Assembly: GCF_000025505.1 (NCBI RefSeq)
Contig: NC_013849.1
Coordinates: 2,164,267 to 2,196,266, forward strand
DNA from: Ferroglobus placidus DSM 10642
Lineage (GTDB): Archaea; Halobacteriota; Archaeoglobi; Archaeoglobales; Archaeoglobaceae
DNA: 32,000 nt
Direction of reading: 5' to 3'
In this document: in pieces, positions 11,603 through 29,929 of the stretch
Position numbering within the stretch: the stretch's first letter is position 1
How the letters are laid out: each line of letters starts with the position of its first letter
Translations under genes and position numbers: made by a program
Notes under the pieces: model-generated
What the model was told of the DNA's origin: nothing
The model's input: the letters and a program-made list of their open reading frames with translations, nothing else
Databases searched by the model: none

Positions 11603-12115
11603 ATGGATCCGAGAGCGTTTTATAAAATAAGTTACGGACTTTACGTCGTTTCCTCCTCCTACAATGGTAGACTGAGCGGGCAAATTGCCAATACAGTTTT
11701 TCAGGTCTCCTCAGAGCCTCCGATGATTGCAGCTTGTTTGAACAAGAAAAACTTCACCCACGAAATAGTGAAGTCGAGTAAGGTTTTCGCTGTTAGCGTT
11801 TTGGAAGCTGAAACGCCACTGACGTTCATAGGAAGGTTTGGGTTCAGAAGTAGCAGGGACTTCGACAAGTTTGAAGGAGTGGATTACGAAATAGGAGTAA
11901 CTGGCGCTCCAGTCGTAATTCAGCATGCAACAGCAATTTTCGAGGCAAAGGTCGTTAAGGAGTGCGACGTTGGAACTCACACCTTGTTTATCGGTGAAGT
12001 CGTGAGGGCTGAGCTGAGAAGAGATGCCGAAGTTTTGACTTACGCCGACTACCATCGGATTAAGAAAGGAAAAACTCCGAAAACTGCTACCGTTTACTTC
12101 GATAAGCAAAGTTAG
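11603..12115 (+). CDS. Flavin reductase-like (FMN-binding split-barrel) protein
   Basis: 170 aa. YGLYVVSS.....SGQIANTV.QVSSEPP.IA.CLNK.N.THE.....K.FAVSVL and H.LFIGEVV are typical of the flavin reductase/DIM6-NTAB family. Confidence 0.8.
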   Translation: MDPRAFYKISYGLYVVSSSYNGRLSGQIANTVFQVSSEPPMIAACLNKKNFTHEIVKSSKVFAVSVLEAETPLTFIGRFGFRSSRDFDKFEGVDYEIGVTGAPVVIQHATAIFEAKVVKECDVGTHTLFIGEVVRAELRRDAEVLTYADYHRIKKGKTPKTATVYFDKQS

Positions 12116-12123
12116 TTGCTAAA

Positions 12124-12153
12124 TTGCAAAAAATGCAACATTGATGCTTTTTT
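12124..12153 (+). terminator. Possible terminator: short dyad followed by a T7 run after the flavin reductase gene
   Basis: The dyad TTGCA-AAAAA-TGCAA sits at 12124-12138. It is followed by GCTTTTTTT, with the T run ending at 12153, starting about 10 nt after the TAG stop. Oligo-T tracts are the usual archaeal termination signal. Confidence 0.3.
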
Positions 12154-12154
12154 T

Positions 12155-12764
12155 ATCACTCACTTTTTGGGCTTTCGAACAATTTTAAATTTTGGAGATA
12201 ATAATAAAAAATTAAAATTTAAACTTTTTAAATTATATCTTCTAACTCTTATGTTTTCCATTTTTAAATCTTTTATAAAAATTAAAATGACAAAAATTGA
12301 ATTGATAATTTAAATTAATTAAATATTAATGAGCTATGTAATCTGTAGCCTTATCACAAAATTTTTAGAATACAACATTTTTAGGTTTACCTAAAAATGT
12401 TGAATGTGGCGACTCGCTTGTTCCAAAAATTATGTGAATTTAGGCTGCGTCGCGAATTTACCCCCCCTTAACTGCATGAAGTGTGCAAATTTGTGAAACA
12501 ACGCTATTTAACGGTGTTAAATATTACAATAATTTTGGAATAAAGATTATTTAGCCTCAGCAATATATATTTGCTTCAAAATTAACTGCTCAAGAAATTA
12601 TTGATTTGTGAGTAGATATTTGAATATACAAAATTAAAAACTAAAATTAATTAAAATAAATTTTGAAAATTAATATATTACATTAAATAAATAATTTTAA
12701 TTAAATTACTTAGATACAACAGAACAAATGTAAATTAACCTCCAAGTTTCAAAAAGTGAGTGAT
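12155..12764. repeat. 610-bp extremely AT-rich non-coding element bounded by a perfect 15-bp inverted repeat
   Basis: ATCACTCACTTTTTG at 12155-12169 is the exact reverse complement of CAAAAAGTGAGTGAT at 12750-12764. The interior has no credible ORF. One example line, 12661-12720, has 6 G/C in 60 nt. See findings. Confidence 0.6.
12373..12402. repeat. 30-bp near-perfect palindrome
   Basis: CAACATTTTTAGGT-TT-ACCTAAAAATGTTG has 14-bp arms and a 2-nt centre. It lies inside the AT-rich gap. Confidence 0.7.
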
Positions 12765-13948: not shown

Positions 13949-14359
13949 ATGGCTGAAGCTAAAGGAGAAATTGTCGTTTCCGCAGACGTTGAGAGAGTTA
14001 GGAAAGTCCTTTTAGACATGAAAACGGTTGGTAGTTGCTTTAAGTTCGTTAAGAATGCTTCTGAAAAAGGAGAAAAGTGGTTTGTCAGAGCTCCTATGTC
14101 GATGATAACGCAAACAAAGGAGTTAGAAGTGAAAGTTATCAGAGAAGAGCCAGTTGAATGGGAAGCAAAGGGAAAACATCTGTTATGGAAGGGAAGATTT
14201 GAGGTAGAAGAGGCAAACGGGGGAACGAGGATAAAGGTTACGCTCTCCGTTGAGGGGCTGGGAAGCATGGCAGCGATAATTAATCCGATGGCAAGCGTCC
14301 AGATAGAGGGGCAATTAAGGTACTTCCTAAACGAGTTGAAGAAGAAAATTGAGGGTTAG
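13949..14359 (+). CDS. SRPBCC-fold (CoxG/polyketide-cyclase-like) protein
   Basis: 136 aa. The pattern of alternating beta segments and a long C-terminal helix, plus V.A....V...L.D......C, resembles CoxG-like SRPBCC proteins. This is a weak call made by eye. Confidence 0.55.
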   Translation: MAEAKGEIVVSADVERVRKVLLDMKTVGSCFKFVKNASEKGEKWFVRAPMSMITQTKELEVKVIREEPVEWEAKGKHLLWKGRFEVEEANGGTRIKVTLSVEGLGSMAAIINPMASVQIEGQLRYFLNELKKKIEG

Positions 14360-15393
14360 CGTTTCGCTATAAGCTCTTTCACCGCCGTACAACCTCCGCA
14401 GGTGAAGCATCCCGCTTCGGCTTTATTGATTTTGACATGCTTAACGTAACTTTCAACGAGCTCGTAAATCTTTACCACTTCATCTAAATTGACTGGCTGT
14501 TCGTTAGAATAAGGCGGAGGTCTGTAAGGAGCTAGGAAAGGAGTAATTCCTATTTCAACCATCCTTTCAACGTTTTCAGCAGTTACGAATTTATCCTCTC
14601 CGAAACCAAGCACAATCCAGCTGTTAACCTTCCATTTCCCGAAAATATCCACGGCGTTCTCCCAAGCTTTGAAGTACTCTTCAAGCTTCGGCTTTCCTGG
14701 AACAACATTGCTTCTAATTTTTTCGTCCAGAACTTCAGCGTGAATACCTATCGTGTCTGCCCCACTTTCGTAAAGCATTTCAAGAAAATCTCTATCGACG
14801 ACGTCGACCTGAACGTGAATTGGTATGTCCACTTTTTCCTTTACAGCCTTAACAACTTCAGAGATTTTTACAGCCCCTTTGTCTTTCCCCGGCATAATTC
14901 CGGAAGTTATTGTGAGGTGTCTGCTGTTATCCTCTTCGTAAGCCATTTTCGCAGCCTCGGCTATCATTTCTGGAGTTTTTTCCACGATCGAGTTTTCCAG
15001 CCCAATCTCTATAGAGCAGAATTTGCATCTCTTCTTTTTCCACAGAACGCATCTTCTCGACACAGCAGTTACGAGAGCGTTAATTCCGTCGAGAGCAACT
15101 ATTTTCCCGGCTTCAACGCCAAAACTCGTCGGCTTCGAATAATACTCAGCCTTAGGTAGCTTAACCTCGCCAACGACTTCGTCGTTCTTGAAAAGGTAAT
15201 ATTTCTCGTCGATTTTCTCAATTCTGTAAGGGGAGTTTTCAACGAACTTTTGCTTGTTCGGAGCAGAAACCACGCTACCTTCTACCTCAAACCCAACTCC
15301 TCCAGTTGGACCTCCTCCACTCTTTCTGTAGCTTCTAACGTTTCCTCTAACTCCTTTCACTATTATTTCGAGTTTCGTTCTCCAGTCAAGCAT
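14356..15393 (-). CDS. Radical SAM-like enzyme with a non-canonical CX7CX2C cluster motif, unknown subfamily
   Basis: 345 aa. The only N-proximal Cys triad is C-VLWKKKR-C-KF-C. It is followed by TIM-barrel-like segments (HLTITSG, IHVQVD, ADTIGIH, SWIVLGFGE). There is a roughly 110-aa N-terminal extension (SGGGPTGG) and a C-terminal CFTCGGC. Its start overlaps the upstream gene by 8 nt. Confidence 0.7.
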   Translation of the reverse strand: MLDWRTKLEIIVKGVRGNVRSYRKSGGGPTGGVGFEVEGSVVSAPNKQKFVENSPYRIEKIDEKYYLFKNDEVVGEVKLPKAEYYSKPTSFGVEAGKIVALDGINALVTAVSRRCVLWKKKRCKFCSIEIGLENSIVEKTPEMIAEAAKMAYEEDNSRHLTITSGIMPGKDKGAVKISEVVKAVKEKVDIPIHVQVDVVDRDFLEMLYESGADTIGIHAEVLDEKIRSNVVPGKPKLEEYFKAWENAVDIFGKWKVNSWIVLGFGEDKFVTAENVERMVEIGITPFLAPYRPPPYSNEQPVNLDEVVKIYELVESYVKHVKINKAEAGCFTCGGCTAVKELIAKR

Positions 15394-16327
15394 AAACCCT
15401 CACAGCCTCATCCGGAGAGTCGCTGTAAGCCACAGCTGCCAGAGCACCTATTACACCTCTCCTCCCGGTAATTTCTATCAACTCAACCCCGTTTCTCTCC
15501 GCAACATTTTCAGCCTCCTCGATTTCCACCATCTCCCTCTTTACCTTCTCCCCGAATTTTAACAGCTCTTCGTCGATCAAAATTTTTTTGTAAACCGCCA
15601 TAGCCGTTTCGTCGCTGAAAGTGCTCTTTCTAAGCTCTTTTTCAAACGCTTTCACGAGCTTTTCCGAATCTTGCGTTGCGAAAGTTACTGAAATGGATAC
15701 GCAGTTCGTAGTTTTGTATGGATTTTTCGTGTACAGCTGAGTGATCGTGTGAAGGAGGTAGTATCCAAGTCCTTCTTTTTCAAGTTTGTAGGCGATTTCG
15801 TTAACGAGTGCCCAAGTTGCCCCTCCTTCCTTGCTGTCCGTATCATCGACGCCTATCACAACCTTCTCCATTGCCGGAAGAACGAGTTTAGCCTTTCCAA
15901 GTTTCTCTCCTCCTCCCTCTTCGAGAATTTCAATTCCCAACACGTTTTCAGCCATGCCCCTGCAAACTGTCGCAGCTATGCCTCCTCCGGCAAGACCGGC
16001 GTAAGTTACCTCGACTTTATCACCAACAACTTCGACTTTTTCAACACCAGCTCCGGCAATCCCCGGCACGAGCCTCAAAGTCGTTTCTCCCTTTTTCAAA
16101 ACGAAAATGTTCCTCGCTCCTTCTCTCCTCGCTTTTAGAACGAGGTTGCTCACTCTCGGGTAGTGGTAAATCTCCCAAGCAGCTCCGCCTATGCATTTTC
16201 CTCTCGCATGAAACTCGTGGAGCTCAACGTGAAAGCCGTCGTGCATGGCGATAATTCTCTCGTAAGGAGAAATCCACTCAACACCACCATATTTTTTTAA
16301 TACCTCCTCTCTACTCATCAAAACCAT
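15386..16327 (-). CDS. Two-domain protein: unknown Gly-rich N-domain plus a TiaS TCKD-like (Thr18-Cyt34 kinase domain) C-domain
   Basis: The C-terminal half, VIGVDDTDSKEGGATWALV...LYTKNPYKTTNCVSISV, is colinear with the TiaS N-terminus (GIDDTDS..GMCTTY...PYKTRGNGAVS, from memory). No OB-fold or Zn-ribbon part of TiaS is present. The N-terminal roughly 150 aa (HARGKCIGGAAWEIYHYPR, GIAGAG, AGLAGGGIAA) are unassigned. Confidence 0.6.
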   Translation of the reverse strand: MVLMSREEVLKKYGGVEWISPYERIIAMHDGFHVELHEFHARGKCIGGAAWEIYHYPRVSNLVLKARREGARNIFVLKKGETTLRLVPGIAGAGVEKVEVVGDKVEVTYAGLAGGGIAATVCRGMAENVLGIEILEEGGGEKLGKAKLVLPAMEKVVIGVDDTDSKEGGATWALVNEIAYKLEKEGLGYYLLHTITQLYTKNPYKTTNCVSISVTFATQDSEKLVKAFEKELRKSTFSDETAMAVYKKILIDEELLKFGEKVKREMVEIEEAENVAERNGVELIEITGRRGVIGALAAVAYSDSPDEAVRVYA

Positions 16328-17379: not shown

Positions 17380-17439
17380 GCCGCTGTGATGATTACTCCC
17401 GCTGCTGACACGTGATGATTATTGCGCTATCTGAGCGGC
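17380..17439 (+). ncRNA. Box C/D sRNA (2'-O-methylation guide)
   Basis: GCCGC-T-GTGATGA(C, 17386-17392)-TTACTCCCGCTG-CTGA(D', 17405-17408)-CAC-GTGATGA(C', 17412-17418)-TTATTGCGCTAT-CTGA(D, 17431-17434)-GCGGC. There are two 12-nt guides, a 3-nt D'/C' spacer and a 5-bp terminal stem GCCGC/GCGGC. Confidence 0.85.
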
Positions 17440-17621
17440 TACCATTCTATGCTTATCGCGTTGTTCGGACAGGCTCTCGTGCACGCGCCGCACTCCATGC
17501 AGAGGTCTTCGTTTACCTTAGCCACACCGCCGTCGAGATATATGGCTCCTCCCTTCTCGCTGCAAACTTCCACGCAGGCTCCGCATCCATCGCACTTTGA
17601 AGCGTCAATTACGGCAGGCAT
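17439..17621 (-). CDS. 2x[4Fe-4S] ferredoxin
   Basis: 60 aa with CDGCGACVEVC and CMECGACTRACP. Confidence 0.9.
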   Translation of the reverse strand: MPAVIDASKCDGCGACVEVCSEKGGAIYLDGGVAKVNEDLCMECGACTRACPNNAISIEW

Positions 17622-17829: not shown

Positions 17830-19014
17830 TCATGGTCTGTAGCTTTTCGGCATTCCGAGAACGTGCTCTCCTATGTAGGCGAGCGCCATCTGCTGCGTTA
17901 CGGGAGCGAGCCTTATCAGGTTTATCTCTCTCCACCACCTTTCGACATCGTATTCTTTAGTGTATCCGTAGCCTCCGAAGGTTTGCATAGCCCAGTAAAC
18001 AGCTCTAATTCCTGCCTCTACTGCCACAACCTTAGCCATGTTGGCAGCGTCACCAACTTCTCTGTAAGAAGCGTTGTTGTCGAACAGCCAAGCAGCTTTC
18101 AGGTTCATCAGTTTTGCACACTCCAGCGTGGCGTAAGCCTCAGCCAAGGGGAACTGCAATCCCTGGTAGCTTCCGATCGGATCCTGAAAGACCTTCCTCT
18201 GCTTGGAATACTCCACAGCCTTGCTAACAGCCAATCTCGCTATGCCTATTGCCGCAGCTGCGAAACTCATCCTCTCAGGATTCAGCGTGTCGAGAATTAG
18301 GTACCACCCCTCGTCTTGCGGAGGAATTAAAGCATTTTCCGGCAATCTCAAATTATTGAAGCTGACTTCACAGGTTTTTGAATAGTTTATTCCGTGTTTT
18401 GGTATGGGGTTTATCTTTACCGCTGGATTTGGCAAGTCAGCTAAGAACAAACTTATTCCGTAAGTTCTCTTCGGAGCCTCCTCTCTTGGAGTCGTTCTTG
18501 CGATTATAAGCATTCCCTTCGCCCTGTCAGCTCCGCTTATGAATATCTTGTTGCCGTTTATCACCCACTCGTCTCCGTCTTTAACTGCCCTCGTCCTTAT
18601 GTTGAGGGTGTTCGTTCCAGCGTCGGGCTCAGTCAGAGCCATGCAGAACTCAAGCTTGCCTTTAGCGATCTTCGGAAGGTACTTTTCCTTTTGCTCTTCA
18701 GTTCCGTGCCTCACAATCGTCAAAGCCCCAAAGACCTCGGTAAGAACGAGATACCACACTCCCCCCATTCCGCAGCCGTTGGCGGCTAACTCCTCCATCG
18801 CTATAAGCAGTTCTGTCATTCCGTACCCGGAGCCCCCGTACTCTTCGGGGATTACTATTCCTACGAAACCGGCATCGCTTATAGCCTTCCAGAACTCCTC
18901 GGCAAACTCTCCCTTCTCGTCCTTTTCCCTCCAGTATTCGGGAGGAAAATCTTTAGCGATATCTCTTGCAGCCTCTGCTATCATCTTCTGATCTTCCGTC
19001 AGTTTAAAGTCCAA
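17830..19014 (-). CDS. Acyl-CoA dehydrogenase
   Basis: About 395 aa from the TTG at 19014, which sits 6 nt behind GGAGGTG. The remaining N-terminal extension of the tracked ORF lies in the 26-nt intergenic gap and overlaps the upstream DUF35 gene, which makes it implausible. ACAD-typical segments: LTEDQKMI.E..R.FA, ALTEP.AGT, G.KIFIS.A, QR..F...I...Q.LQF.LAE, A.MAK....E, QTFGGYGY..EY.VERWWRE. Confidence 0.88.
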   Translation of the reverse strand: MDFKLTEDQKMIAEAARDIAKDFPPEYWREKDEKGEFAEEFWKAISDAGFVGIVIPEEYGGSGYGMTELLIAMEELAANGCGMGGVWYLVLTEVFGALTIVRHGTEEQKEKYLPKIAKGKLEFCMALTEPDAGTNTLNIRTRAVKDGDEWVINGNKIFISGADRAKGMLIIARTTPREEAPKRTYGISLFLADLPNPAVKINPIPKHGINYSKTCEVSFNNLRLPENALIPPQDEGWYLILDTLNPERMSFAAAAIGIARLAVSKAVEYSKQRKVFQDPIGSYQGLQFPLAEAYATLECAKLMNLKAAWLFDNNASYREVGDAANMAKVVAVEAGIRAVYWAMQTFGGYGYTKEYDVERWWREINLIRLAPVTQQMALAYIGEHVLGMPKSYRP

Positions 19015-19040
19015 ATCAATCACCTCCAAAAAATAGAAAA

Positions 19041-19511
19041 TTAGGCTGGTTTGAAGTAAAGAATGTCCGTAATCTTTCCTTCTCTCTCTTCCTTCGGCTT
19101 TAGAACCGGTTTGACTTTCATTCCAACGCAAACGTCTTCGGGATTCACTTCTCCGAGCAGGTGAATTATTCTTCCGTTTGTTCCGTCCATCTCTATGAGA
19201 GCGTAGATTTCCGGTTTTTCGAGCTTCTCTCCGTTTTTATCGTAGTACGCCACAGCAAAAGCCGCAACGCATCCCTCTCCGCTCACTTCCACGTATTCCG
19301 TCTCGCTAAAGTCGAACTCGCAGTAGATCCTCGGAGGGAAGAATACGTGCCCGCATTTTTTACATTTGGCGGCTGTAAACTTCCCCTCATCCCTCAGCTT
19401 TTTGAAAAAGTAATCTCCAGCTTCTCCGCTCGTGTAAACCCAGTAAAGCTCTATCTTACCTTCCACGTGCTTCAGCTCTCGAGGATCGATAATTTTTTCG
19501 GTAAAAACCAT
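19041..19511 (-). CDS. DUF35 OB-fold/Zn-ribbon protein (degenerate ribbon)
   Basis: 156 aa. F..L...GKF.AAKCKKCGHVFFPPRIYC is followed by an OB-fold segment ending GMKVKPVLKP....GKITDILYFKP. Only 3 of the 4 ribbon Cys are present (CKKC...C-EFD). Confidence 0.8.
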   Translation of the reverse strand: MVFTEKIIDPRELKHVEGKIELYWVYTSGEAGDYFFKKLRDEGKFTAAKCKKCGHVFFPPRIYCEFDFSETEYVEVSGEGCVAAFAVAYYDKNGEKLEKPEIYALIEMDGTNGRIIHLLGEVNPEDVCVGMKVKPVLKPKEEREGKITDILYFKPA

Positions 19512-19516
19512 TCACA

Positions 19517-20053
19517 TCACCCCTCTATCGGCTTCCAGTACTTTATATCCGTTATCGCTCCCTCCCTCTCCTCTTCGGGCTTCCAGACCGCCTTTACTTT
19601 CATTCCGATGTAAACCTTGTCCGGCTCGACCTCGCCGAGTTTATGTAGAATTCCCATGTGTGGAGAGGCTCCGTCTATAGCTATAACTGCCACAATTTCC
19701 GGCTCTTCTAAAGGTCTCGCGTCTGGATCGATGTAGGAGATCGAGAAGGTCTCAACAACTCCGGTGTCTTTAAGCTCGACCCACTCGTTTATAGGTTTGA
19801 AACAAAGCTCGCAGAATTCCCTTGGAGGAACCATAACCCTTCCGCACTTGTTGCACTTTACTCCGAGAATCTTTCCCTCCTTCAACCCCTTGAGGAACTT
19901 GCTGATAGCCTGTCCGGCTGTAAAGGAATAGCGAATGTCAGGGTGATCTTCCACGTACGTTATCGTCTTCTTCTCGAAATCCTCCGCTTCGAGCTCTCTC
20001 CCCTTAACGTAAGGAGGACAGCTAATATCCTTCTTACCTACCGCCAACTCCAT
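19517..20053 (-). CDS. DUF35 OB-fold/Zn-ribbon protein
   Basis: About 178 aa from the ATG at 20053, which forms a TGATG overlap with the upstream stop. The full ribbon is CNKCGRVMVPPREFCELC. The OB-fold tail is GMKVKAVWKPEEEREGAITDIKYWKP. Confidence 0.8.
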   Translation of the reverse strand: MELAVGKKDISCPPYVKGRELEAEDFEKKTITYVEDHPDIRYSFTAGQAISKFLKGLKEGKILGVKCNKCGRVMVPPREFCELCFKPINEWVELKDTGVVETFSISYIDPDARPLEEPEIVAVIAIDGASPHMGILHKLGEVEPDKVYIGMKVKAVWKPEEEREGAITDIKYWKPIEG

Positions 20054-21261
20054 CACCTCTTGTTTGATAAAACCATAACGGTTCCAACCTGCATCAAATC
20101 TCCCCAAGCCTGAGCGACTCCCGTTGTGACTTCCTTCGGAACCTGCCTCTTTCCAGCTCTGTAGGCGAGCTGCCAGTAGATTTCCGCTACTTTAACTCCC
20201 ATTGTCGCAGCTATCGGGTTTCCTACTCCAAGCAGTCCTCCAGATGGGCAAACAGGAAGATCACCGTCTCTTGCCGTGACTCCCTCTCTCGTTAAGATGG
20301 GTGCCTCACCCTTCTTAGCCAAGCCTAACCCTTCCATGTGGTGCAACTCCTTGTAATCGAAGGGATCGTAGGGCTCAGCCACGTCGATTTCCTTCCTCGG
20401 ATCGGTTATGTGAGCCATCTTGTAAGCCATTTTCGCAGCCTCAGCCACGTACCTCGGGAAGTAGAGGTCTCTGTTCGTCCACCACGTTGTGTCCAAACTC
20501 CAGCCAACTCCTGCCACCCAAACCGGCTCGTCCGTGAGTTGTCTCGCTATGTGGGGAGCGACCATTATCAAAGCAGACGCTCCGTCGCTCGGCGGAGAAA
20601 CGTCGAGTCTTCTCACCGGCAAAGCCATCGGCTCGCTGTTGAGTACGTCTTCAACGGTTATCTTGGCTGCAAGCTGTGCAGCCGGATGGTCTAAAGCGTT
20701 TGCCTTGTTCTTTACGGAAACGAGAGCTATATCTTCATGCTTTATGTTGTGGACGTGCATGTACCTCCTCATTTCCAGAGCGAATATCCAGATGAGGTTC
20801 GGTTTTAGCGGACGATCGAGAATTGGATCCCAGATGTACTTGAAAGCCGACTGCGGATGCGGATGGGAAGAGCTCATCTTCTCTTCGGTAACAACCAAGC
20901 AAACGTCGGCAAGACCGCTTGCAACGTGCCAGTAGCCGGCGATAGGAGCGAATACTCCAGTGCCTCCTCCTACGAAAACTCTCATGTATGGCTTGTTGCT
21001 TCCTCCAGCTCCGTCGAGCAGGTATTCTCCCTTCATGTGCACACCGTCAAAGGCATCTGGAGCTGAACCCATTACAACCATGTCTATGTCGCTGATGTCC
21101 AAGCCAGCTTCTTCCAAAGCCTGCTTTACAGCATAGTAACTAAGCTCTTTTCCAGTCTCGTTAAGCCTCCTTCTGAATATCGTCATTCCCGCTCCAACTA
21201 TCGCGACATCCTGCTTTTTGTGGTACTTCAAACCCTTAACCTTCTCAACTATCATGACCAT
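20053..21261 (-). CDS. Thiolase-fold (SCP-x/lipid-transfer-protein-like) protein 2, apparently lacking canonical catalytic residues
   Basis: About 402 aa from the ATG at 21261 (TGATG overlap). The thiolase-like layout is VAIVGAGMT...VMGSAP...VASGLADVCLVVTEEKM...SGGLLGVGNPIAATMG. The position of the nucleophilic Cys (ACASG) reads GGGTG, and the GHP His reads GNP. Confidence 0.8.
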   Translation of the reverse strand: MVMIVEKVKGLKYHKKQDVAIVGAGMTIFRRRLNETGKELSYYAVKQALEEAGLDISDIDMVVMGSAPDAFDGVHMKGEYLLDGAGGSNKPYMRVFVGGGTGVFAPIAGYWHVASGLADVCLVVTEEKMSSSHPHPQSAFKYIWDPILDRPLKPNLIWIFALEMRRYMHVHNIKHEDIALVSVKNKANALDHPAAQLAAKITVEDVLNSEPMALPVRRLDVSPPSDGASALIMVAPHIARQLTDEPVWVAGVGWSLDTTWWTNRDLYFPRYVAEAAKMAYKMAHITDPRKEIDVAEPYDPFDYKELHHMEGLGLAKKGEAPILTREGVTARDGDLPVCPSGGLLGVGNPIAATMGVKVAEIYWQLAYRAGKRQVPKEVTTGVAQAWGDLMQVGTVMVLSNKR

Positions 21262-22403
21262 CACCTCGAAAATACAGCCACAGCTCCGGTAGCGGTAGGA
21301 ATGTATCTCCAAGACATAGCCACGCCAACCTCAGCGTCAACCTGCCTTCTTCCAGCTTCCCCTCTCAGCTGCAAAACGACCTCCAAAGCTTTTTGCCCGC
21401 CGGTAGCTTCAAGGAGATTTCCAACGCTGAGATTTCCTCCAGAAACGTTCACCGGCAATTCTCCTTTTCTGTCGAAGTAACCGCTCTTCATCAATTCCTC
21501 CACTTCTCCCTTCTTAGCCAAACCGAGAGCTTCGATGTGCTGAACTTCTTTGTAGGCAAACCTGTCGTCAACCTCTGCAAGCTGAATTTCTTTATCCGGC
21601 TTAGTTATTCCAGCCATCTTGTAAGCCATTTCGGCAGCCTTCTTTGCATAAGCCGCTTCAAAGCTCATCGTGTCGTAATTGCTTGTTTCGCTCCACCAGC
21701 CAATTCCGTTAATCCATATCGGATCGTCTCTAAGCTCCTTAGCAACCTGCTCGTTAGCCAAAACGAAAACAATAGCTCCGTCGCTCCTCTCAGCAATTTC
21801 GAGCTTTCTCAACGGATAGAAGGCTGCTTCGCTGCTCAAAACATCTTCGACGCTTACATTAGCTGAGTACGGAGCGTCTTTGTTCAGCCTTCCGTGCTTC
21901 TTGTTCTTTACAACAACTTCAGCGAAAAGCTCGTCGCTGTAGCCTCTTCTGCTCATGTAGTATGATTTTTCGAGGGCGGCGAAGTAGTAAGGATGAGCCT
22001 TTCCGATCGGTCTCAGCCATATCGGGTCGAACGCAAACTTAATGACTTCTCCGAAAGTCACTATGTCGCTCGCTTTGCTGTGAGCTTCTACAACAGCTAT
22101 CTCAGCCAGTCCGCTCTTTATTATCATGTACGCGTTGGCGATTCCGTGGAGAAAATCGGCAGTCACGGTGAACGTTGGCTTCAGCACCGCACCAAGCTGA
22201 TCTGGCACGAACTCGTCGAAAATTGCGAAGCCCTCCCAGAAGTCTTCCGCGCACGTGACGAAGCTGTCGACGTCCTTTCTTGGATTTATCCCTGCATCTT
22301 CGTAAGCTCTGACTGCAGCTTCGTACATTATCTCTTTCCAGCTTAAATCCGGCGTATTTGCGTTAAAACCGGAGTAGCCAACGCCTACGACAGCTACTCT
22401 CAT
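21261..22403 (-). CDS. Thiolase-fold (SCP-x/lipid-transfer-protein-like) protein 1, apparently lacking canonical catalytic residues
   Basis: 380 aa. The layout is VAVVGVGYS...IKSGLAEIAVVEAHSK...SGGNLSVGNLLEATGG...LQLRGEAGRRQV. The nucleophile position reads VTADF with no Cys nearby, and the GHP His reads GNL. Confidence 0.8.
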   Translation of the reverse strand: MRVAVVGVGYSGFNANTPDLSWKEIMYEAAVRAYEDAGINPRKDVDSFVTCAEDFWEGFAIFDEFVPDQLGAVLKPTFTVTADFLHGIANAYMIIKSGLAEIAVVEAHSKASDIVTFGEVIKFAFDPIWLRPIGKAHPYYFAALEKSYYMSRRGYSDELFAEVVVKNKKHGRLNKDAPYSANVSVEDVLSSEAAFYPLRKLEIAERSDGAIVFVLANEQVAKELRDDPIWINGIGWWSETSNYDTMSFEAAYAKKAAEMAYKMAGITKPDKEIQLAEVDDRFAYKEVQHIEALGLAKKGEVEELMKSGYFDRKGELPVNVSGGNLSVGNLLEATGGQKALEVVLQLRGEAGRRQVDAEVGVAMSWRYIPTATGAVAVFSR

Positions 22404-22426
22404 TTTGTTTCACCAGTTTCAGCTTT

Positions 22427-22437
22427 ACTTACGCACT
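22427..22437. promoter_or_regulatory. Copy 1 of an 11-nt motif (ACTTACGCACT) abutting the TATA-like box of the leftward operon
   Basis: ACTTACGCACT is directly followed by ATTTAAAA (22438-22445). The motif lies between that TATA-like element and the ATG at 22403 on the minus strand. Confidence 0.3.
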
Positions 22438-22595
22438 ATTTAAAATTTTCTTTTTTATTCATTTCAAATTTTATGAACTCCAATATAAATTTTTTTAATT
22501 ATTAAACATTCCCGTAAAGCTTTTGCCTATTCGATATCAAAAATCCTGACAAATTTAAGCCGGCTTCAAATAAATTTTTGACAAAGCTTAAATAA

Positions 22596-22606
22596 ACTAA
22601 CGCACT
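22596..22606. promoter_or_regulatory. Copy 2 of the motif (ACTAACGCACT) abutting the TATA-like box of the rightward operon
   Basis: TTAAATAA (22587-22594), then one A, then ACTAACGCACT. The motif lies between the TATA-like element and the ATG at 22640, and 10 of 11 positions are identical to copy 1. Confidence 0.3.
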
Positions 22607-22639
22607 TCTGCTTTCTGTAAAACTTCTGGAGGGGGCAAA

Positions 22640-24199
22640 ATGTCAAGGCTTCAAGAGCATCCGATAGTTGATTTTAAGAGGGGCAAGGAAGTCACAATTT
22701 ATTTCAACGGAAAGCCGATAAAAGCTTATGAGGGTGAAACTGTAGCTGCAGCGTTGTATGCTGCCGGAATTCGTGTTTTTAGCAGATCTTTCAGATTTCA
22801 CAGACCTCGTGGATTCTTCTGCGCTATAGGAAAGTGTTCGGCTTGCATGATGGAAGTAGATGGAATACCAAACGTCAGAATATGCAAAGTTTACGTGAGA
22901 GACGGAATGCAGATAAGGACGCAGAACGCGTATCCTTCAGCGGAAAACGACGCTTTAGCGATTTTCGACAGGATAATAGACAGATTCTTTCCCCACGGCT
23001 CACACTACAAGAAGTTCACGAGCTCCAAAACGCTAAGGGAAATAGCGACGAAGCAAATGAGGAAAATAGCCGGAATAGGTGAGTTTCCAAAAGCTCTGCC
23101 GAAAGAAGAGGCGGACTACGAAGAGATTAATGCGGACATAGCGATAGTGGGCGGAGGTCCTGCTGGTTTATCAGCTGCAATTTACGCTGGAAGGCTCGGA
23201 GCGAAAGTTGTTCTGATGGACGAAAATCCGTACTTAGGCGGACAGCTGATAAAGCAGACACACAGATTCTTCGGTAGCGGAGAGCACTATGCCGGAACGA
23301 GAGGAATAAGGATCGCGGAAATTTTAACGAAAGAGGTAAAAGAAATTGAGAACGTGGATGTTAGGACCGAGACGAAAGTTTTCGGAATTTACGGGAAAAC
23401 CGTTGCGGCTGTCGAAAAAGATAGAAAGCTCCTGAAGGTCAACGCTAAAAAGATTGTTATTGCAACCGGAGCTTATGAAAGAACCTTAATCTTTGAAAAC
23501 AACGATCTTCCCGGAGTTTACGGAGCTGGAGGAGTTCAGACGTTAATGAACGTTTACGGAGTAAAGCCCGGAAATAGAGGGTTAATCGTCGGTTCTGGAA
23601 ATGTAGGACTTATTCTCAGCTATCAGCTCTTGCAGGCTGGCGTTGATGTTGCAGCTATCGTCGAGGCTATGCCGTTCGTTGGAGGGTACTTCGTTCATGC
23701 TGCAAAAGTGAGGAGACTCGGAGTTCCCATTTACACGAGACACACGATTCTGAAGGCTCTCGGAGAAAAGAAGGTGGAAAGAGCAATAATTGTTGAGCTG
23801 GATGAAAATTGGAGACCGATCGAGGGAACGGAGAAGGAGATAGAGTGCGACTTCATCTGCGTGGCTGTAGGTTTGTCTCCAGCTCACGAATTACTTTACC
23901 AAGCCGGATGCGAAATGAAATTCGTCCCCGAGCTTGGAGGTTTGGTACCAGTTAGAAACAAGTACGGAGAAACTACTGCAGAAGGAGTTTACGTTGCCGG
24001 AGACGTGGCGGGAATCGAGGAAGCTACGGCGGCAATGATGGAGGGTAGAATTGCCGGGCTTGATGCTGCGATAAAGCTTGGATACGGGGATGAAGAGGCG
24101 GTAAAGCTAAGAGATAAGATAGTGGGAGAACTCGAAGAGTTTAGAAGGGGACCTTTCGGTGAGAGGATTCTCAGAGGTTTGGAGAAGGTGGTGAGGTGA
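22640..24199 (+). CDS. Alpha subunit of a sarcosine-oxidase/L-proline-dehydrogenase-type complex: N-terminal [2Fe-2S] domain plus FAD/NAD(P) oxidoreductase
   Basis: The SoxA/HcnA-like N-terminus is G.PI.AYEGETVAAAL.A.GIR....S....RPRGFFCAIGKCSACMMEVDG.PNVRIC. Next come IAIVGGGPAGLSAA and a second Rossmann motif, LIVGSGNVGL. 519 aa. Confidence 0.8.
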   Translation: MSRLQEHPIVDFKRGKEVTIYFNGKPIKAYEGETVAAALYAAGIRVFSRSFRFHRPRGFFCAIGKCSACMMEVDGIPNVRICKVYVRDGMQIRTQNAYPSAENDALAIFDRIIDRFFPHGSHYKKFTSSKTLREIATKQMRKIAGIGEFPKALPKEEADYEEINADIAIVGGGPAGLSAAIYAGRLGAKVVLMDENPYLGGQLIKQTHRFFGSGEHYAGTRGIRIAEILTKEVKEIENVDVRTETKVFGIYGKTVAAVEKDRKLLKVNAKKIVIATGAYERTLIFENNDLPGVYGAGGVQTLMNVYGVKPGNRGLIVGSGNVGLILSYQLLQAGVDVAAIVEAMPFVGGYFVHAAKVRRLGVPIYTRHTILKALGEKKVERAIIVELDENWRPIEGTEKEIECDFICVAVGLSPAHELLYQAGCEMKFVPELGGLVPVRNKYGETTAEGVYVAGDVAGIEEATAAMMEGRIAGLDAAIKLGYGDEEAVKLRDKIVGELEEFRRGPFGERILRGLEKVVR

Positions 24200-24688
24200 A
24201 TGCAGGAGTTTTGCAAGAGGGGGTATTTGATTGAAGAAGAACTTCCAGAACCGCCAAGCGAAGAAAGGCTGAGAGATAAAAGACCCGTGGCTTACATAGA
24301 ATGCCCTCAGAGAATTCCCTGCTCACCTTGTAAAGAAGCTTGCAGGTTCGATGCTGTGATAATGGAGACGATAAACGACACTCCGAAAGTGGATTACGAG
24401 AAGTGTACCGGATGCATGGCTTGCATAAGAGTTTGCCCCGGCTTAGCAATTTTCATGCTCCAAATTAAGGACGATAAGGGTTACGTTACCTTGCAGTACG
24501 AATTCCTGCCCTGGCTGAAAAAGGGAGACAGAGTGCTCGTTTTGAACAGAAAAGGGGAAGTGATAGGAGAGGGAGTAATAGCGTGGGCTTTGAATCCGGA
24601 AAGGAACGACAGAACTCAGCTCGTAACGGTTGAAGTCGATAAAGATCTGATTTTTGAGGCGAGAGCGGTTAAGAAGGTGGTAGAATGA
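24200..24688 (+). CDS. Ferredoxin-like gamma subunit ([4Fe-4S]-binding)
   Basis: 162 aa with CPQRIPCSPCKEACRFDAV and the canonical CTGCMACIRVCPGLAI. It starts immediately after the alpha stop (TGAATG). Confidence 0.7.
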   Translation: MQEFCKRGYLIEEELPEPPSEERLRDKRPVAYIECPQRIPCSPCKEACRFDAVIMETINDTPKVDYEKCTGCMACIRVCPGLAIFMLQIKDDKGYVTLQYEFLPWLKKGDRVLVLNRKGEVIGEGVIAWALNPERNDRTQLVTVEVDKDLIFEARAVKKVVE

Positions 24689-24957
24689 AGAGCAGAAAGA
24701 TCGTTTGCAGGTGTGAGGATATAACCGAAGAGGAAATAATACACGCTATAGAGGAAGGATACGACGACATAGAAAGTTTGAAAAGGTACACGGGAGCCAC
24801 AACCGGAGCTTGCCAGGGAAAGGGTTGCCTAATGCACATACTGAGGATTCTCAGTCAAAAAACCGGAAAGAGTCCAGAGGAGATCGGGATAACAACCCAA
24901 AGACCTCCCGTAAACCCAGTTCCCTTATACGTTTTGGCTGAGGGTGATAAAGAATGA
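24685..24957 (+). CDS. Small BFD-like [2Fe-2S] delta subunit
   Basis: 90 aa with CRCEDITEEEI...GATTGACQGKGC, the BFD-like/HcnA-like 2Fe-2S pattern. There is a 4-nt overlap on both sides. Confidence 0.75.
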   Translation: MKSRKIVCRCEDITEEEIIHAIEEGYDDIESLKRYTGATTGACQGKGCLMHILRILSQKTGKSPEEIGITTQRPPVNPVPLYVLAEGDKE

Positions 24958-26045
24958 GGGTGGCGATAATCGGTTCCGGCATAGCCGGGATTTCTCTCGC
25001 TTACTTTCTTGCGAAAAGCGGAATTGACGTGGCTGTTTTCGAGAAAAAATATCCTCTTTACGGAGCGAGCGGAAGAAATTCGGGGGGAATAACTCTTCAG
25101 TTCGACAAACCGGAGTTCGTGGATCTCGCTAAGGAGAGCTTAAAAATTTACGACAGAGTTCAGTCGGAAGTGGGATTCAACTTCCTGTACAGGCACGACG
25201 GCTACATAAAAGTGGCGAGAAATAAAGACGATTTGGACAAGCTTGAAAAAGAGGTTAAAGTGGCGAAGTCGAGAGGAGTAAAAGCGAAAATGCTTGAAGC
25301 CGAGGAAGTAAAGGAGTTCGTTCCCGACTTCAACCCTGATGCCATAGTTGGGGCGAGCTATTCGGAAGGGGGAGTGATCTTTCCTTGGCCGGTAATCTGG
25401 GGATTTGCCAAAGGTTGTAAAGAGATGGGAGTTGAGATCAAAAAAATGAGCGAAGTTAAGGAGATCGTCATTGAAAAAGGGTTTGTAAAGGGAGTAAAAG
25501 CTAACGGAGAGATCTACAAGGCTGATTACGTCGTCAACGCAGCGGGAGCTTGGAGCAACGAAGTCTCGTCTTTAGCTGGCGTAGGATTGGATAACAGAAT
25601 AATTAAAGAGGAAATTTGCGTTAGCGAAAGCTTAAAACCTTACCTCGATCTCTACATTCTCGACGTCTCCACCGGCGTTTACCTGAGTCAGAGTGTCAGA
25701 GGAGAGATAGTGGGAGGGATTCTCGGCAGCGAGGTAGAAAAGCCGGACACTTCTTCAAGCTTCGAGTTCTTGACGAAGTACGCTAAAAAAGCGAGCGAGC
25801 TAATTCCGAAGCTTAAGAGCCTAACGATACTCAGGCAGTGGGCGGGAGTTTACGATGTCGCCAAGGACGATATGCCCGTAGTTGGATTAACCTCCGTCAG
25901 CGGCTTCATACAGTTCAACGGGCTCGGAAAATTCGGAATGTGCATCGCTCCAGCTCTGGCAAAGGAGTTGGCAATTTTGATTGTAAGGGGAGAAAACAGA
26001 AAAATAGAAAAGTTCAGTCCCCTCAGATTGAAAATTTACCACTAA
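24954..26045 (+). CDS. FAD-dependent amine/amino-acid dehydrogenase beta subunit (DAO family, sarcosine oxidase beta / proline dehydrogenase beta-like)
   Basis: 363 aa. The N-terminus VAIIGSGIAGISLAYFLAKSG.DV.VFEK....GASGRN.GG, then VVNAAGAWS, are typical of the DAO/SoxB family. Confidence 0.8.
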   Translation: MRVAIIGSGIAGISLAYFLAKSGIDVAVFEKKYPLYGASGRNSGGITLQFDKPEFVDLAKESLKIYDRVQSEVGFNFLYRHDGYIKVARNKDDLDKLEKEVKVAKSRGVKAKMLEAEEVKEFVPDFNPDAIVGASYSEGGVIFPWPVIWGFAKGCKEMGVEIKKMSEVKEIVIEKGFVKGVKANGEIYKADYVVNAAGAWSNEVSSLAGVGLDNRIIKEEICVSESLKPYLDLYILDVSTGVYLSQSVRGEIVGGILGSEVEKPDTSSSFEFLTKYAKKASELIPKLKSLTILRQWAGVYDVAKDDMPVVGLTSVSGFIQFNGLGKFGMCIAPALAKELAILIVRGENRKIEKFSPLRLKIYH

Positions 26046-26242
26046 ATTTTTCTCTTCTTTTTGAGAACTTCCTCAAGTTTCTTTTCTATCGGCTCCTCAT
26101 GAGTGTACGGGCACATCAGATAATGCTCCACAGCTTTTGCTATCGCATCCTTCGTTGCACTCTCACCGGTCTTTTTCTTCAATTCGTTAAGCACGTCCTC
26201 CGGCAGCACGGTTTGAGCATGCACGATCTTTACCATCTCCAT
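26042..26242 (-). CDS. Small ribbon-helix-helix-like protein at the end of the CODH operon
   Basis: About 66 aa. IVHAQTVLPEDVLNELKKKTGESATKDAIAKAVEHYL fits a strand-helix-helix (CopG/Arc-like) pattern. The tail HYLMCPYTHEE is followed by a Lys-rich end. ATG at 26242 forms the same TGATG overlap seen at other junctions; the ORF track uses GTG at 26245. Confidence 0.5.
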   Translation of the reverse strand: MEMVKIVHAQTVLPEDVLNELKKKTGESATKDAIAKAVEHYLMCPYTHEEPIEKKLEEVLKKKRKI

Positions 26243-27480
26243 CACCTATAATGATGATGAGATTGCTGGTATTTAAACTTTGTGCTGAAAGATGCAAAAT
26301 CTGAATCCTTAAGAGTAAAGAGAGGTTTGCCAAACCTTCCGATGTCGAATCCAGAAACCATGATTCTGTAAAATATACCGGCATTTGATATGTCTCCTAC
26401 GATTATGTAGCCTACAAGCCTTCCATTTTTTACGTAAAACCTCCAGTAATTCCCTCTGTCCTCTACTTCTTGGTAATTATTCCCGCTCACGTCTCCGGCG
26501 ACGATAAAGTGGAAACCGAGCTTTTTTAGGCTATTGATAACGTCAGAACCTTCGTAAGGAATCTTATAACCGAGAGCGTTTAAAGCCGCTATCTTCCCTT
26601 GCCTTACAGCGTTCCAGTAGTTGGCGAAAACTCCTCTCTCACCGGTAACTCTGTTTTTTGTCTCACAAACGTCTCCACAAGCGTAGATATCCTTTTGGGA
26701 GGTCTCCATAAATTCGTTAACTACTATACCTTTTGCAGTATCAAGTTCTTCCTTACAGAAATCGACGTTCGGAATCATGCCGGTAGCTGCGACGAACACA
26801 TCTCCGGGAAATTCTTCTCCGTTCTCAGTAACAACCGCTTTACAAACTCCTGAGCTGTCAGCCGCGAACTCCGTACCAAAACTGTTGAACACGAGCTCAA
26901 CTCCCTTGTCTTCAAGTACTTTCTCGACGAATTTCGACGCTTTTTTATCCAACCTCTCGGGCATTATTCTGTCGGTCGCCTCCAAAAGCGTGACGTCAAT
27001 TCCGATCTCTCTGAGCGTTAAAGCTATCTCTGTTCCCTGAAAACCTCCGCCAACGACAACCGCTTTTTTACACTCACCTCTAACAATTTTAGACCGAAGC
27101 TCTCGAACTTGAGTTAGCGACTTGAAATTGTAAACATTCGGAAGATCCAAACCCTTAAGAGGAGCGTAAAGTCTGCTTCCCGAAGCAACTATAATTTTTT
27201 CGAACTCGTAGTCTCCTATTTCGGTTGTTATCTTTTTCCTCTTGGCATCTAATTTTTCAACTTTCTCTCCAATTCTCGCATCAACGTTTAGCCTTTCAAA
27301 AACGTCTTTTCCTTTCCAGAAAATCTCGTCACCGCCGGTTTTAAGATAGGTTGTCAAGACTGCCGGGTTGTAGGGAGGACATTTCTCAGCGGAAAAAATT
27401 GTTATTGGTAGATTTGTTTTCCTTCTGAGAGTCTCCGCAGCTGATATTCCCGCTGGTCCAGCGCCTACTATAGCGATCAT
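26242..27480 (-). CDS. FAD/NAD(P)-dependent pyridine-nucleotide-disulfide-family oxidoreductase (CODH-associated FNOR type)
   Basis: 412 aa. IAIVGAGPAGISAA, a second motif AVVVGGGFQGTEIA, and YACGDV. There is a 4-nt overlap with cooS. Confidence 0.8.
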   Translation of the reverse strand: MIAIVGAGPAGISAAETLRRKTNLPITIFSAEKCPPYNPAVLTTYLKTGGDEIFWKGKDVFERLNVDARIGEKVEKLDAKRKKITTEIGDYEFEKIIVASGSRLYAPLKGLDLPNVYNFKSLTQVRELRSKIVRGECKKAVVVGGGFQGTEIALTLREIGIDVTLLEATDRIMPERLDKKASKFVEKVLEDKGVELVFNSFGTEFAADSSGVCKAVVTENGEEFPGDVFVAATGMIPNVDFCKEELDTAKGIVVNEFMETSQKDIYACGDVCETKNRVTGERGVFANYWNAVRQGKIAALNALGYKIPYEGSDVINSLKKLGFHFIVAGDVSGNNYQEVEDRGNYWRFYVKNGRLVGYIIVGDISNAGIFYRIMVSGFDIGRFGKPLFTLKDSDFASFSTKFKYQQSHHHYR

Positions 27481-29339: not shown

Positions 29340-29929
29340 CTCCTTAATTTTTTACCCAATTCCACCCACAATCGGTAATTTTCCGGTACTATCTCCTTTT
29401 TCTGGAAAATAGGGTAATACGCAGACGCTATACGCTTCTCCTCTTCCTTTATTAGCTCGTTTACGTCTCCGAACTTCAAGGCTCCCGTCTTACAAACTTC
29501 AACGCATGCCGGAATCATTCCATTGCGAACTCGCTCAATACATCCATCACATTTATAGCTGACAGGAACATCTTCTGCTCTTCTCCAATCTCTGTAAAAT
29601 CTTATAACTCCAAACGGACACACCATAGCACACATTCCGCAATTTATGCATCTGTCGACTTCAACAAAAACTATATTCTCCTCTCTATTTATTGCAGAGG
29701 TTGGGCAAGCTTCTAAACAAGGTGCCGGATCGCAATGCCTGCACTTGCTTGGAAACGCGTAGCTTTCGGCTGGAAATACGTGAATTCTGGGTTTAGGCTT
29801 TGGCTCCTCAAAAATCCCTGCAAAGTCTTTGTTTCGAGAATGAGAGATTGCACACTCGAACATGCACTGCATACAACCAACGCAGCGCTCAGGAAAAACA
29901 ACCACGGATTTCATATTTTGCTCCATCAA
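29336..29929 (-). CDS. cooF: CooF-type polyferredoxin (4x Fe-S motifs)
   Basis: 197 aa with CVGCMQCMFEC, CRHCDPAPCLEACP, CINCGMCAMVCP and CDGC....ACVEVCKTGAL. There is a 4-nt overlap with cooS. Confidence 0.85.
   Translation of the reverse strand: MMEQNMKSVVVFPERCVGCMQCMFECAISHSRNKDFAGIFEEPKPKPRIHVFPAESYAFPSKCRHCDPAPCLEACPTSAINREENIVFVEVDRCINCGMCAMVCPFGVIRFYRDWRRAEDVPVSYKCDGCIERVRNGMIPACVEVCKTGALKFGDVNELIKEEEKRIASAYYPIFQKKEIVPENYRLWVELGKKLRR

Follow-up and report, generated by a model that had tools for sequence, protein, structure and literature searches.

Thiolase-fold enzymes that associate with DUF35 proteins include both true thiolases and aldolases. The DUF35-associated archaeal acetyl-CoA acetyltransferases (ACATs) are defined by three motifs, CxS, HDxF and GHx (PMC12960953), and the archaeal complexes of this type (6esq and 6et9 with 3-hydroxy-3-methylglutaryl-CoA (HMG-CoA) synthase (HMGCS), 7yvy of P. 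furiosus and the KT/DUF35 pair of Sulfolobus) keep all three and are real thiolases. In Ltp2-ChsH2(DUF35) (6ok1) and Sal-Shy(DUF35) (9myr) the aldolase has the SCP2-thiolase fold without the nucleophilic cysteine, and an acyl-CoA dehydrogenase (ACAD) stands upstream in the pathway. Both aldolases are homodimers, and their DUF35 is a domain of a MaoC hydratase. In M. tuberculosis the gene order is Rv3521-ltp4-ltp3 (PMC6429209), and Ltp3-Ltp4 has been described as a heteromeric aldol-lyase that removes the C24 branches of sterol side chains (PMC6678751). Here we describe an operon of the archaeon Ferroglobus placidus DSM 10642, found in a stretch of 32,000 nucleotides (nt) of contig NC_013849.1 (positions 2,164,267 to 2,196,266, hereafter the window), that encodes two thiolase-fold proteins (T1 and T2), two DUF35 proteins (D1 and D2) and an ACAD. 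It resembles the Ltp2 and Sal systems in its cysteine-less fold, DUF35 partners and ACAD, but the DUF35 proteins stand alone and there is no MaoC gene. T1 and T2 carry the name of a thiolase and have lost the residues of one, and in T2 these have been replaced by a strictly conserved set.

The catalytic positions were placed by HMMER alignment to three solved thiolases, 7yvy, 6esq (M. thermolithotrophicus) and 6hsj (the zebrafish SCP2-thiolase). The nucleophilic cysteine (AACASG) is Phe84 in T1 (TADF) and Gly99 in T2 (GGGTG), the histidine of HDxF is Asp279 (DDRF) and Tyr298 (YDPF) respectively, and the histidine of GHP is Asn329 and Asn348. The initial annotation of this DNA, made by eye, had read the Cys/His set as missing from both proteins, and the alignments bear this out, as neither subunit has a conserved nucleophilic cysteine and catalytic histidine. 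A search for an invariant cysteine that might act as an alternative nucleophile found none in 79 T1 or 66 T2 orthologues. Since all three thiolase motifs are lost from both proteins and no cysteine is invariant, we are confident that the T1/T2 complex is not a thiolase. In a DUF35-type ACAT the change of His to Tyr in HDxF is enough to nearly abolish thiolysis (PMC12960953).

The fold itself is complete. Pfam matches T1 to Thiolase_C_1 only and T2 to both Thiolase_N and Thiolase_C_1. The AlphaFold2 (AF2) models have predicted template modelling (pTM) scores of 0.85 and 0.90 for the two subunits, 0.85 being that of T2, and T1 has a predicted local distance difference test (pLDDT) score of 86.9. 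In Foldseek the query-normalised TM-scores to 7yvy, 6esq and 6hsp are about 0.8-0.9, the full SCP2/archaeal thiolase fold being present in T1 and T2, and T1 reaches 0.88-0.89 to 6esq/6et9. With 620.6 bits against NF004722 (PRK06066, cutoff 516) and 754.5 bits against NF004721 (PRK06065, cutoff 455), T1 and T2 respectively are members of these two NCBIfam equivalog models, which are called "thiolase domain-containing protein" and have no functional name. Public sources label the proteins acetyl-CoA C-acetyltransferase.

Orthologues were taken from 80 genomic loci, and column statistics were calculated on 79 T1, 66 T2, 34 D1 and 52 D2 sequences. T2 is at least 97% invariant at 146 of its 402 positions. 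The GGGTGV loop (residues 98-103, nt 20953-20970), YDPF (298-301, nt 20359-20370) and Asn348 (nt 20218-20220) are the same in 66 of 66 orthologues, and His307-His308, His135 and E126-E-K128 also belong to the set that is at least 97% invariant. The alternative residues of T2 stay the same across two domains of life, and as judged from these alignments chance decay does not account for the loss of the catalytic set. The identity of T2 between Archaeoglobi and bacteria is 60-75%, against about 50% for T1, and clustering at 50% folds the entire T2 orthologue group into about three representatives.

T1 and T2 are paralogues, 37% identical at the profile level, and the nucleophile loop of T1 is three residues shorter than that of T2. 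The His-equivalent positions of T1 vary among its orthologues (Asp, Asn, Cys or Ser at 279; Asn, His or Tyr at 329). Asp83, which lies in the shortened loop, is Asp in 78 of the 79 orthologues and Glu in the other, and its column is acidic in 35 of 39 more distant T1-like representatives. The presence of a near-universal Asp in a remodelled loop argues, from conservation, that T1 is not simply dead. The initial annotation had called both subunits degenerate; this holds for the thiolase set, which is gone from both, and misses the alternative set of T2 and the Asp83 kept by T1. The low-confidence segments of the AF2 monomer models (31-34, 70-78, 130-136 and 345-349 in T2; 55-67 and 120-135 in T1) overlap invariant loops, a pattern in the models that fits interface or active-site loops that would be ordered only in a complex.

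The T1 and T2 genes are closely joined to those of the DUF35 proteins. The order on the minus strand is T1-T2-D1-D2-ACAD, spanning 17830-22403. At the T1/T2 junction the sequence TGATG has the A of the T1 TGA in common with the T2 ATG, and the T2/D1 junction has the same overlap. D2 begins 5 nt past D1, and the TTG start of ACAD lies 26 nt past the D2 TAA, with GGAGGTGA just before the TTG. A second reading of the gene calls gave the same order, overlaps and gaps as the initial annotation, and the DUF35 partners and the ACAD are real by their Pfam domains. The order T1-T2-DUF35-DUF35 is kept in 58 of the 60 loci that have enough downstream sequence. One protein (P0243, 731 amino acids (aa)) is a natural single-chain T2-DUF35-DUF35 fusion; in this and a second such fusion of T2 to two DUF35 domains (P0259) the zinc ribbon of the second DUF35 is degenerate. 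An apparent T1-T2 fusion (P0128, 679 aa), in which T1 is joined at about residue 345 to T2 at about residue 67, is probably a chimera of assembly or gene calling and was not used. The translational coupling, the fixed gene order and the T2-DUF35-DUF35 fusion make it very likely that T1, T2, D1 and D2 form a complex.

The two DUF35 proteins differ in their zinc ribbons. D1 has an OB fold and a Cys4 ribbon (C67, C70, C81 and C84, nt 19802-19855), and all four cysteines are invariant in its 34 orthologues. The ribbon of D2 is made of C50, C53, C64 and Asp67 (nt 19311-19364); its three cysteines are invariant in the 52 orthologues, of which 37 have Cys and 15 have Asp at the fourth position. The initial annotation was right that the D2 of this locus has only three ribbon cysteines, but with Cys at the fourth position in 37 of 52 orthologues this is the variant of a minority of lineages.

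The module is a widespread and catalogued family pair (NF004722/NF004721) and not a local curiosity. Its archaeal carriers are Archaeoglobi, Asgard archaea (Prometh-, Hod- and Hermod-archaeota), Baldrarchaeum, Bathyarchaeia, Thermoplasmata and Nitrosocaldus, and its bacterial carriers are Thermodesulfobacteriota/Syntrophaceae/Syntrophorhabdus, Chloroflexi, Actinomycetes, Krumholzibacteria and WOR-3. In loci from Hadarchaeota and Dehalococcoidia (L030 and L034) T1 is present and the contig ends or breaks before the full module. The T1 of a Ferroglobus metagenome-assembled genome (L002) is 98% identical to the T1 described here. Three Asgard loci have a second, paralogous cysteine-less pair a few kb from the main module (L016:10537-13931, L019:7066-10483 and L025:13027-15223), so that Asgard genomes hold several such modules. 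In these second pairs one subunit is T2-like (TGGTTG, Y-S-P-F or Y-E-P-T, T-N) and the other T1-like, and DUF35 genes flank the pairs of L016 and L019. We also surveyed the 103 full-length 50%-cluster representatives nearest T2. The canonical Cys/His/His set is present in 16 of these, the T2-like pattern (no Cys, Tyr, Asn) in 22 and the T1-like pattern (short Asp loop) in about 39; a further 11 are without the Cys only, and the rest are intermediate. The cysteine-less T2-like and T1-like proteins together thus outnumber the true thiolases in this sample.

A comparison with Ltp2 and Sal shows which part of an aldolase active site T2 may have. At the HDxF motif SCP2 thiolases read H-D-C-F, Ltp2 reads Y294-D-H-F, with Tyr294 as the catalytic base and Tyr344 as the acid, and Sal reads Y302-D-C-Y, where Tyr302 and Cys304 are catalytic, and carries Gly in place of the old nucleophile (PMC12329534). 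T2 appears to share with both the position of the base tyrosine (Tyr298), a correspondence that comes from the HDxF register and a spacing of 50 residues and not from direct alignment, and it shares with Sal the glycine at the nucleophile position (Gly99). It differs in having Pro300 where Ltp2 has His296 and Sal the essential Cys304, a motif that reads D-D-R-F in T1. Asn348 lies 50 residues past the tyrosine, where Ltp2 has Tyr344 and Sal Gln352, and T1, T2, Ltp2 and Sal all have this spacing. Of the catalytic tyrosines of Ltp2, to which the initial annotation had pointed, T2 would have the first, and the second is Asn in both T1 and T2. With 23-24% identity and the second catalytic residue absent, the proteins were not placed in the Ltp2 or Sal families.

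The closest relatives in architecture are of the Ltp3-Ltp4 type (Rv3521-Rv3522-Rv3523), in which adjacent cysteine-less thiolase-fold paralogues stand beside two DUF35 domains. A heteromeric precedent with an adjacent double-DUF35 protein therefore exists, which the initial annotation did not name. On a plasmid of Streptomyces clavuligerus a 339-aa double-DUF35 protein is followed by a PRK07937 "lipid-transfer protein" (354 aa) and then by a PRK08313 protein (388 aa) that has no Cys and reads Y-V-P-F and A-N-P. When aligned with this pair, the longer subunit (PRK08313 type) has the Gly-rich loop, Y-x-P-F and x-N-P as in T2, and the shorter subunit (PRK07937 type) has the shortened loop with Asp as in T1. 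The cluster has the arrangement of Rv3521-ltp4-ltp3, and PRK08313 and PRK07937 were matched to Ltp3 and Ltp4 by gene order, lengths and NCBI name; Rv3521 is a DUF35 protein. In plasmid pLP1 of Rhodococcus qingshengii two ACADs, a split MaoC hydratase, a degenerate thiolase-like open reading frame, a T2-like protein (38% identical to T2, YAPF and ANP) and a DUF35 gene follow in order, a layout with the ACAD/hydratase/aldolase logic of the igr operon. By analogy, the S. clavuligerus and pLP1 clusters offer the strongest support for aldol chemistry.

The Ltp3-Ltp4 type nevertheless differs from the module. Its DUF35 domains are fused and encoded upstream, whereas here they are two separate genes downstream; it serves steroid catabolism in aerobes, its activity is known from genetics and not from enzymology, and its identity to T2 is about 37%. 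T2 scores 253.5 bits against PRK08313 (cutoff 514) and T1 87.3 bits against PRK07937 (cutoff 419), so neither is a member, and the module is best filed beside the Ltp3-Ltp4 type and not inside it. A further parallel may be coincidence. The Asgard locus L018 has an F420-dependent LLM-class oxidoreductase near the module (11668-12747), much as Rv3520c adjoins the Rv3521-ltp4-ltp3 set in M. tuberculosis.

By sequence and fold the nearest proteins are the archaeal DUF35-thiolases, which are likewise archaeal and have stand-alone DUF35 partners. They differ in keeping the thiolase motifs, and they are partnered by HMGCS or by enzymes of fatty-acid synthesis, with no second thiolase paralogue. The KT/DUF35 fatty-acid synthase of Sulfolobus was rejected as a match because it contains a genuine thiolase. 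BbsAB benzoylsuccinyl-CoA thiolase and PhlACB/MucABC are also assemblies of thiolase-fold and DUF35 proteins, and PhlA and MucA are inactive thiolase-fold partners; however, BbsB and PhlC keep the catalytic Cys, and the Phl/Muc partner is HMGS/KAS-III-like. Membership of BbsB and BbsA was rejected on NCBIfam scores of 115 (cutoff 750) and 25 (cutoff 250), and that of the PhlC family on scores far below cutoff or the absence of defining residues. The PhlACB/MucABC/HMGS-ACAT-DUF35 class was rejected as both subunits are SCP2-thiolase-like, with no HMGS domain in Pfam and no Cys. ST0096 of Sulfolobus tokodaii (4yzo), the Sphaerobacter protein 4u4e and TbSLP (5ab4-7) are solved SCP2-type proteins without the nucleophilic Cys and of unknown or doubtful function. 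Y-D-x-F is present in 4u4e and TbSLP, ST0096 keeps both His, and none of the three is known as a heteromeric pair with two DUF35 proteins.

The genes around the module suggest what its substrate may be. ACAD carries all three Pfam ACAD domains. Its Pro371 (nt 17902-17904) aligns with the catalytic Glu of YEGT in the butyryl-CoA dehydrogenases 4l1f and 9w60, and in the preceding helix it has Glu247 (nt 18274-18276) where both have Gly; isovaleryl-CoA and long-chain acyl-CoA dehydrogenases have their catalytic base at this second position. The same moved Glu is found in unrelated ACADs next to the module in Hadarchaeota and Asgard archaea, whereas those of Thermodesulfobacteriota keep the canonical Glu. 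An ACAD adjoins the module in 39 loci, and these ACADs come from three different lineages. The initial annotation had remarked on the lack of a hydratase in the operon. This is true of the window, but in the related Archaeoglobaceae loci L006 and L014 a short-chain crotonase follows ACAD in the same operon, and is itself followed by solute-binding-protein and permease genes, assigned by reading their translations.

L006, L007 and L009 have, on the upstream side of the module, a true methylmalonyl-CoA mutase (MCM), an mmdA-like carboxyltransferase, a 4-hydroxybutyryl-CoA-dehydratase-like gene and a second crotonase, together with an epimerase and BCCP in L006. Thermodesulfobacteriota have a fixed operon, HdrA-HdrA-CobO-mutase-B12 subunit-T1-T2-D1-D2-ACAD-MeaB-carboxyltransferase. 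Its B12 mutase (L044:4578-6251, L047:4622-6316 and 12 further Thermodesulfobacteriota loci) reads RMF for RQY and AQK for ARG, the signature of isobutyryl-CoA mutase (ICM), with Phe for Tyr89 and Gln for Arg207. Genes for Family-I CoA-transferases immediately precede the module in L003, L004 and L042, Nitrosocaldus has an IOR-like 2-oxoacid:ferredoxin oxidoreductase upstream, and Asgard archaea have a BKACE enzyme and an acyl-CoA ligase close to the module. This context suggests short, possibly branched acyl-CoAs from the breakdown of amino acids or fatty acids; the initial annotation had also considered an aromatic substrate, and nothing was found that points to one.

On these grounds we propose that T1-T2-D1-D2 is a heteromeric complex that carries out a reversible aldol/retro-aldol reaction on a 3-hydroxyacyl-CoA with Tyr298 of T2 as the base, a proposal to which we give an even chance. 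By analogy with the alpha-beta-beta-alpha arrangement of Sal-Shy(DUF35), a T1-T2 heterodimer would be flanked by D1 and D2, with one DUF35 on each side. There would be no acyl-enzyme intermediate. Tyr298 would take the proton of the beta-hydroxyl, the backbone of the Gly-rich loop and Asn348 would bind the hydroxyl and stabilise the thioester enolate, and the C2-C3 bond would break to give an aldehyde or ketone and acetyl- or propionyl-CoA. Candidate proton donors for the enolate are Asp83 of T1 and His307/His308 of T2. T1 would be a paralogous partner that shapes the T2 site or supplies a residue to it, and D1 and D2 would be zinc-ribbon/OB scaffolds as in Ltp2-ChsH2(DUF35) and Sal-Shy(DUF35). 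The co-transcribed ACAD, with the crotonase in relatives, would produce the 3-hydroxyacyl-CoA, starting with a short, probably branched acyl-CoA supplied by amino-acid or fatty-acid breakdown, and the route would bypass the 3-hydroxyacyl-CoA dehydrogenase and thiolase steps. That the substrate is a short branched acyl-CoA derivative is a tentative suggestion, distinctly less secure than the chemistry. A narrower version, which we consider rather unlikely, is that the module cleaves small tertiary or 2-methyl-branched 3-hydroxyacyl-CoAs (HMG-CoA, 3-hydroxyisovaleryl-CoA or 3-hydroxy-2-methylbutyryl-CoA) with the T1 Asp in a composite active site. Its clues are circumstantial: the moved-Glu ACADs, the ICM-type mutases and the neighbouring Family-I CoA-transferases and acetoacetate-forming BKACE enzymes.

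Several points weigh against an aldolase. The known aldolases have acid residues that are missing here, the position of Ltp2 Tyr344/Sal Gln352 being Asn and that of Sal Cys304/Ltp2 His296 being Pro. Foldseek identity is 26-33% to the archaeal DUF35-thiolases (7yvy and 6esq) against 23-24% to Ltp2 and Sal, which rank 41-43 for T2 and 22-34 for T1, below true thiolases. As T1 and T2 are thus closer to the thiolases, the tyrosine of T2 could be convergent or structural. The match of PRK08313/PRK07937 to Ltp3/Ltp4 comes from gene order, protein lengths and the NCBI name. The window has no hydratase, and a search for an aldehyde-oxidising enzyme among the identified neighbour genes found none, the neighbours of 600-770 aa that were checked being a CoA-transferase, the IOR-like oxidoreductase, a ribonucleotide reductase and a cohesin/dockerin protein. 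The module has only unrelated neighbours in Actinomycetes, WOR-3 and Krumholzibacteria, and the pathway inference therefore rests on a subset of lineages. A literature search on the module (DUF35/thiolase, carrier taxa, Ltp3/Ltp4 and HMG-CoA lyase) found no publication on the NF004722 and NF004721 families.

The same enolate-stabilising site might instead serve another reaction, either the decarboxylation of a malonyl- or methylmalonyl-type CoA (compare the KS-CLF chain-length factor and TbSLP) or a C2/C3 isomerisation or hydration. We regard this as improbable, but the neighbourhood gives it some substance, with methylmalonyl-CoA pathway genes (MCM, epimerase, BCCP and the mmdA-like carboxyltransferase) near the module in Archaeoglobaceae and the ICM-type mutase and a carboxyltransferase adjoining it in Thermodesulfobacteriota. 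TbSLP, a thiolase-like protein with Y-D-C-F, slowly decarboxylates malonyl-CoA (PMC12329534). However, the biotin-dependent carboxyltransferases of these clusters could already do the decarboxylation step, the link to mutases is confined to 18 loci in two lineages, and the actinobacterial T2-like proteins lie in ACAD-hydratase clusters that call for a lyase.

A mainly synthetic role is about equally improbable. Here the enolate of acetyl- or propionyl-CoA would be added to an aldehyde, a ketone or acetoacetate, to give for example 3-hydroxybutyryl-CoA, or HMG-CoA without a thiolase step, and ACAD would act as an enoyl-CoA reductase. The chemistry is that of the proposed aldolase, which is reversible, and among solved structures the biosynthetic archaeal thiolase/HMGCS/DUF35 complexes stand nearest; a DUF35 protein helps to drive condensation in the Sulfolobus fatty-acid synthase, and the neighbours in WOR-3, Krumholzibacteria and Actinomycetes are unrelated and non-catabolic. 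Where there are pathway neighbours, however, they are catabolic (CoA-transferase, 2-oxoacid:ferredoxin oxidoreductase, crotonase, the MCM pathway and solute-binding/permease transporters).

It is more doubtful still that T1 and T2 are both pseudoenzymes which form, with D1 and D2, a non-catalytic scaffold, acyl-CoA carrier or regulator for ACAD or other enzymes. The canonical residues are indeed lost in both subunits, thiolase-fold partners without activity have precedents in PhlA/MucA and in the HMGS unit of the P. fluorescens complex, and DUF35 proteins serve as scaffolds, one of them, Trf (Sso2509), working in translation. A set of 146 nearly invariant positions in T2 that includes the former active-site loops would be unusual for a scaffold, though, and the module often occurs without any ACAD. 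Finally, it is very improbable that one subunit is still a thiolase or condensing enzyme through an unconventional nucleophile or a Cys at another place in the fold, as the database label and the T1 Asp at the old nucleophile site (78 of 79 orthologues) might suggest, since no Cys is invariant in either family, neither catalytic His is kept and a related enzyme loses nearly all thiolysis on the His to Tyr change in HDxF.

The features of the operon are listed in Table 1. Upstream of T1 we read a TATA-like TTTTAAATAG at 22435-22444 in the intergenic region, and GGTGA 7 nt ahead of the T1 ATG.

Table 1. Genes of the operon and putative signals at its two ends (positions in nt of the window).
Feature	Position	Strand	Assignment or basis
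T1 (thiolase-fold, 380 aa)	21261-22403	-	NCBIfam NF004722 (PRK06066)
T2 (thiolase-fold, 402 aa; putative catalytic subunit)	20053-21261	-	NCBIfam NF004721 (PRK06065)
D1 (stand-alone DUF35, 178 aa)	19517-20053	-	Pfam zf-ChsH2 + OB_ChsH2_C
D2 (second stand-alone DUF35, 156 aa)	19041-19511	-	Pfam zf-ChsH2 + OB_ChsH2_C
ACAD (acyl-CoA dehydrogenase, 394 aa, TTG start)	17830-19014	-	Pfam + NCBIfam
AT-rich divergent intergenic region, 236 bp	22404-22639	.	Putative operon promoter, read from sequence
T runs straight after the ACAD stop codon	17780-17829	-	Putative operon end, read from sequence

The remaining genes of the window that we identified lie on both sides of the operon. Beyond the T-rich stretch, about 200 bp downstream of ACAD, there is a gene for a 60-aa 2x[4Fe-4S] ferredoxin (17439-17621, minus strand), and further on (14356-16327, minus strand) a TiaS TCKD/FLD-domain protein (313 aa) overlaps a radical-SAM protein (345 aa) by 8 nt. 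On the other side a divergent cluster of four genes (22640-26045, plus strand) resembles archaeal proline dehydrogenase and sarcosine-oxidase-type complexes, and encodes proteins of 519 aa (2Fe-2S + FAD subunit), 162 aa (4Fe-4S), 90 aa (SO_alpha_A3/BFD-like) and 363 aa (DAO-family subunit). A functional tie between this cluster and the module was rejected, as L001, the closest relative, is the one other locus in which the two adjoin. Within 26242-29929 (minus strand) lies a CO dehydrogenase of the CooS type (Prismane/CODH family, 620 aa), with a CooF-like 4Fe-4S protein (197 aa) on one side and on the other an FAD/NAD oxidoreductase (412 aa).

Metabolic reconstructions of Asgard archaea, Bathyarchaeia, Thermoplasmata, Archaeoglobi and syntrophic bacteria that rely on the acetyltransferase labels would count T1 and T2 as thiolases, although both are devoid of all thiolase catalytic residues. 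Few members of the SCP2-thiolase superfamily are as conserved as T2, which is 60-75% identical between archaea and bacteria and is without an assigned function. With cysteine-less T2-like and T1-like proteins more numerous than true thiolases among the 103 nearest representatives, these proteins seem to be a large unexplored group of enzymes. If the module is an aldolase, the thiolase-fold aldolases would have a general role outside steroid metabolism and, with two distinct DUF35 scaffolds, a heteromeric architecture that is new; the complex would also be a thermostable catalyst that forms C-C bonds on CoA esters. If it is a lyase of branched substrates, anaerobic archaea, including Asgard archaea, and bacteria would have a beta-oxidation shunt without a dehydrogenase or thiolase, drawing its carbon from branched-chain amino acids or fatty acids.

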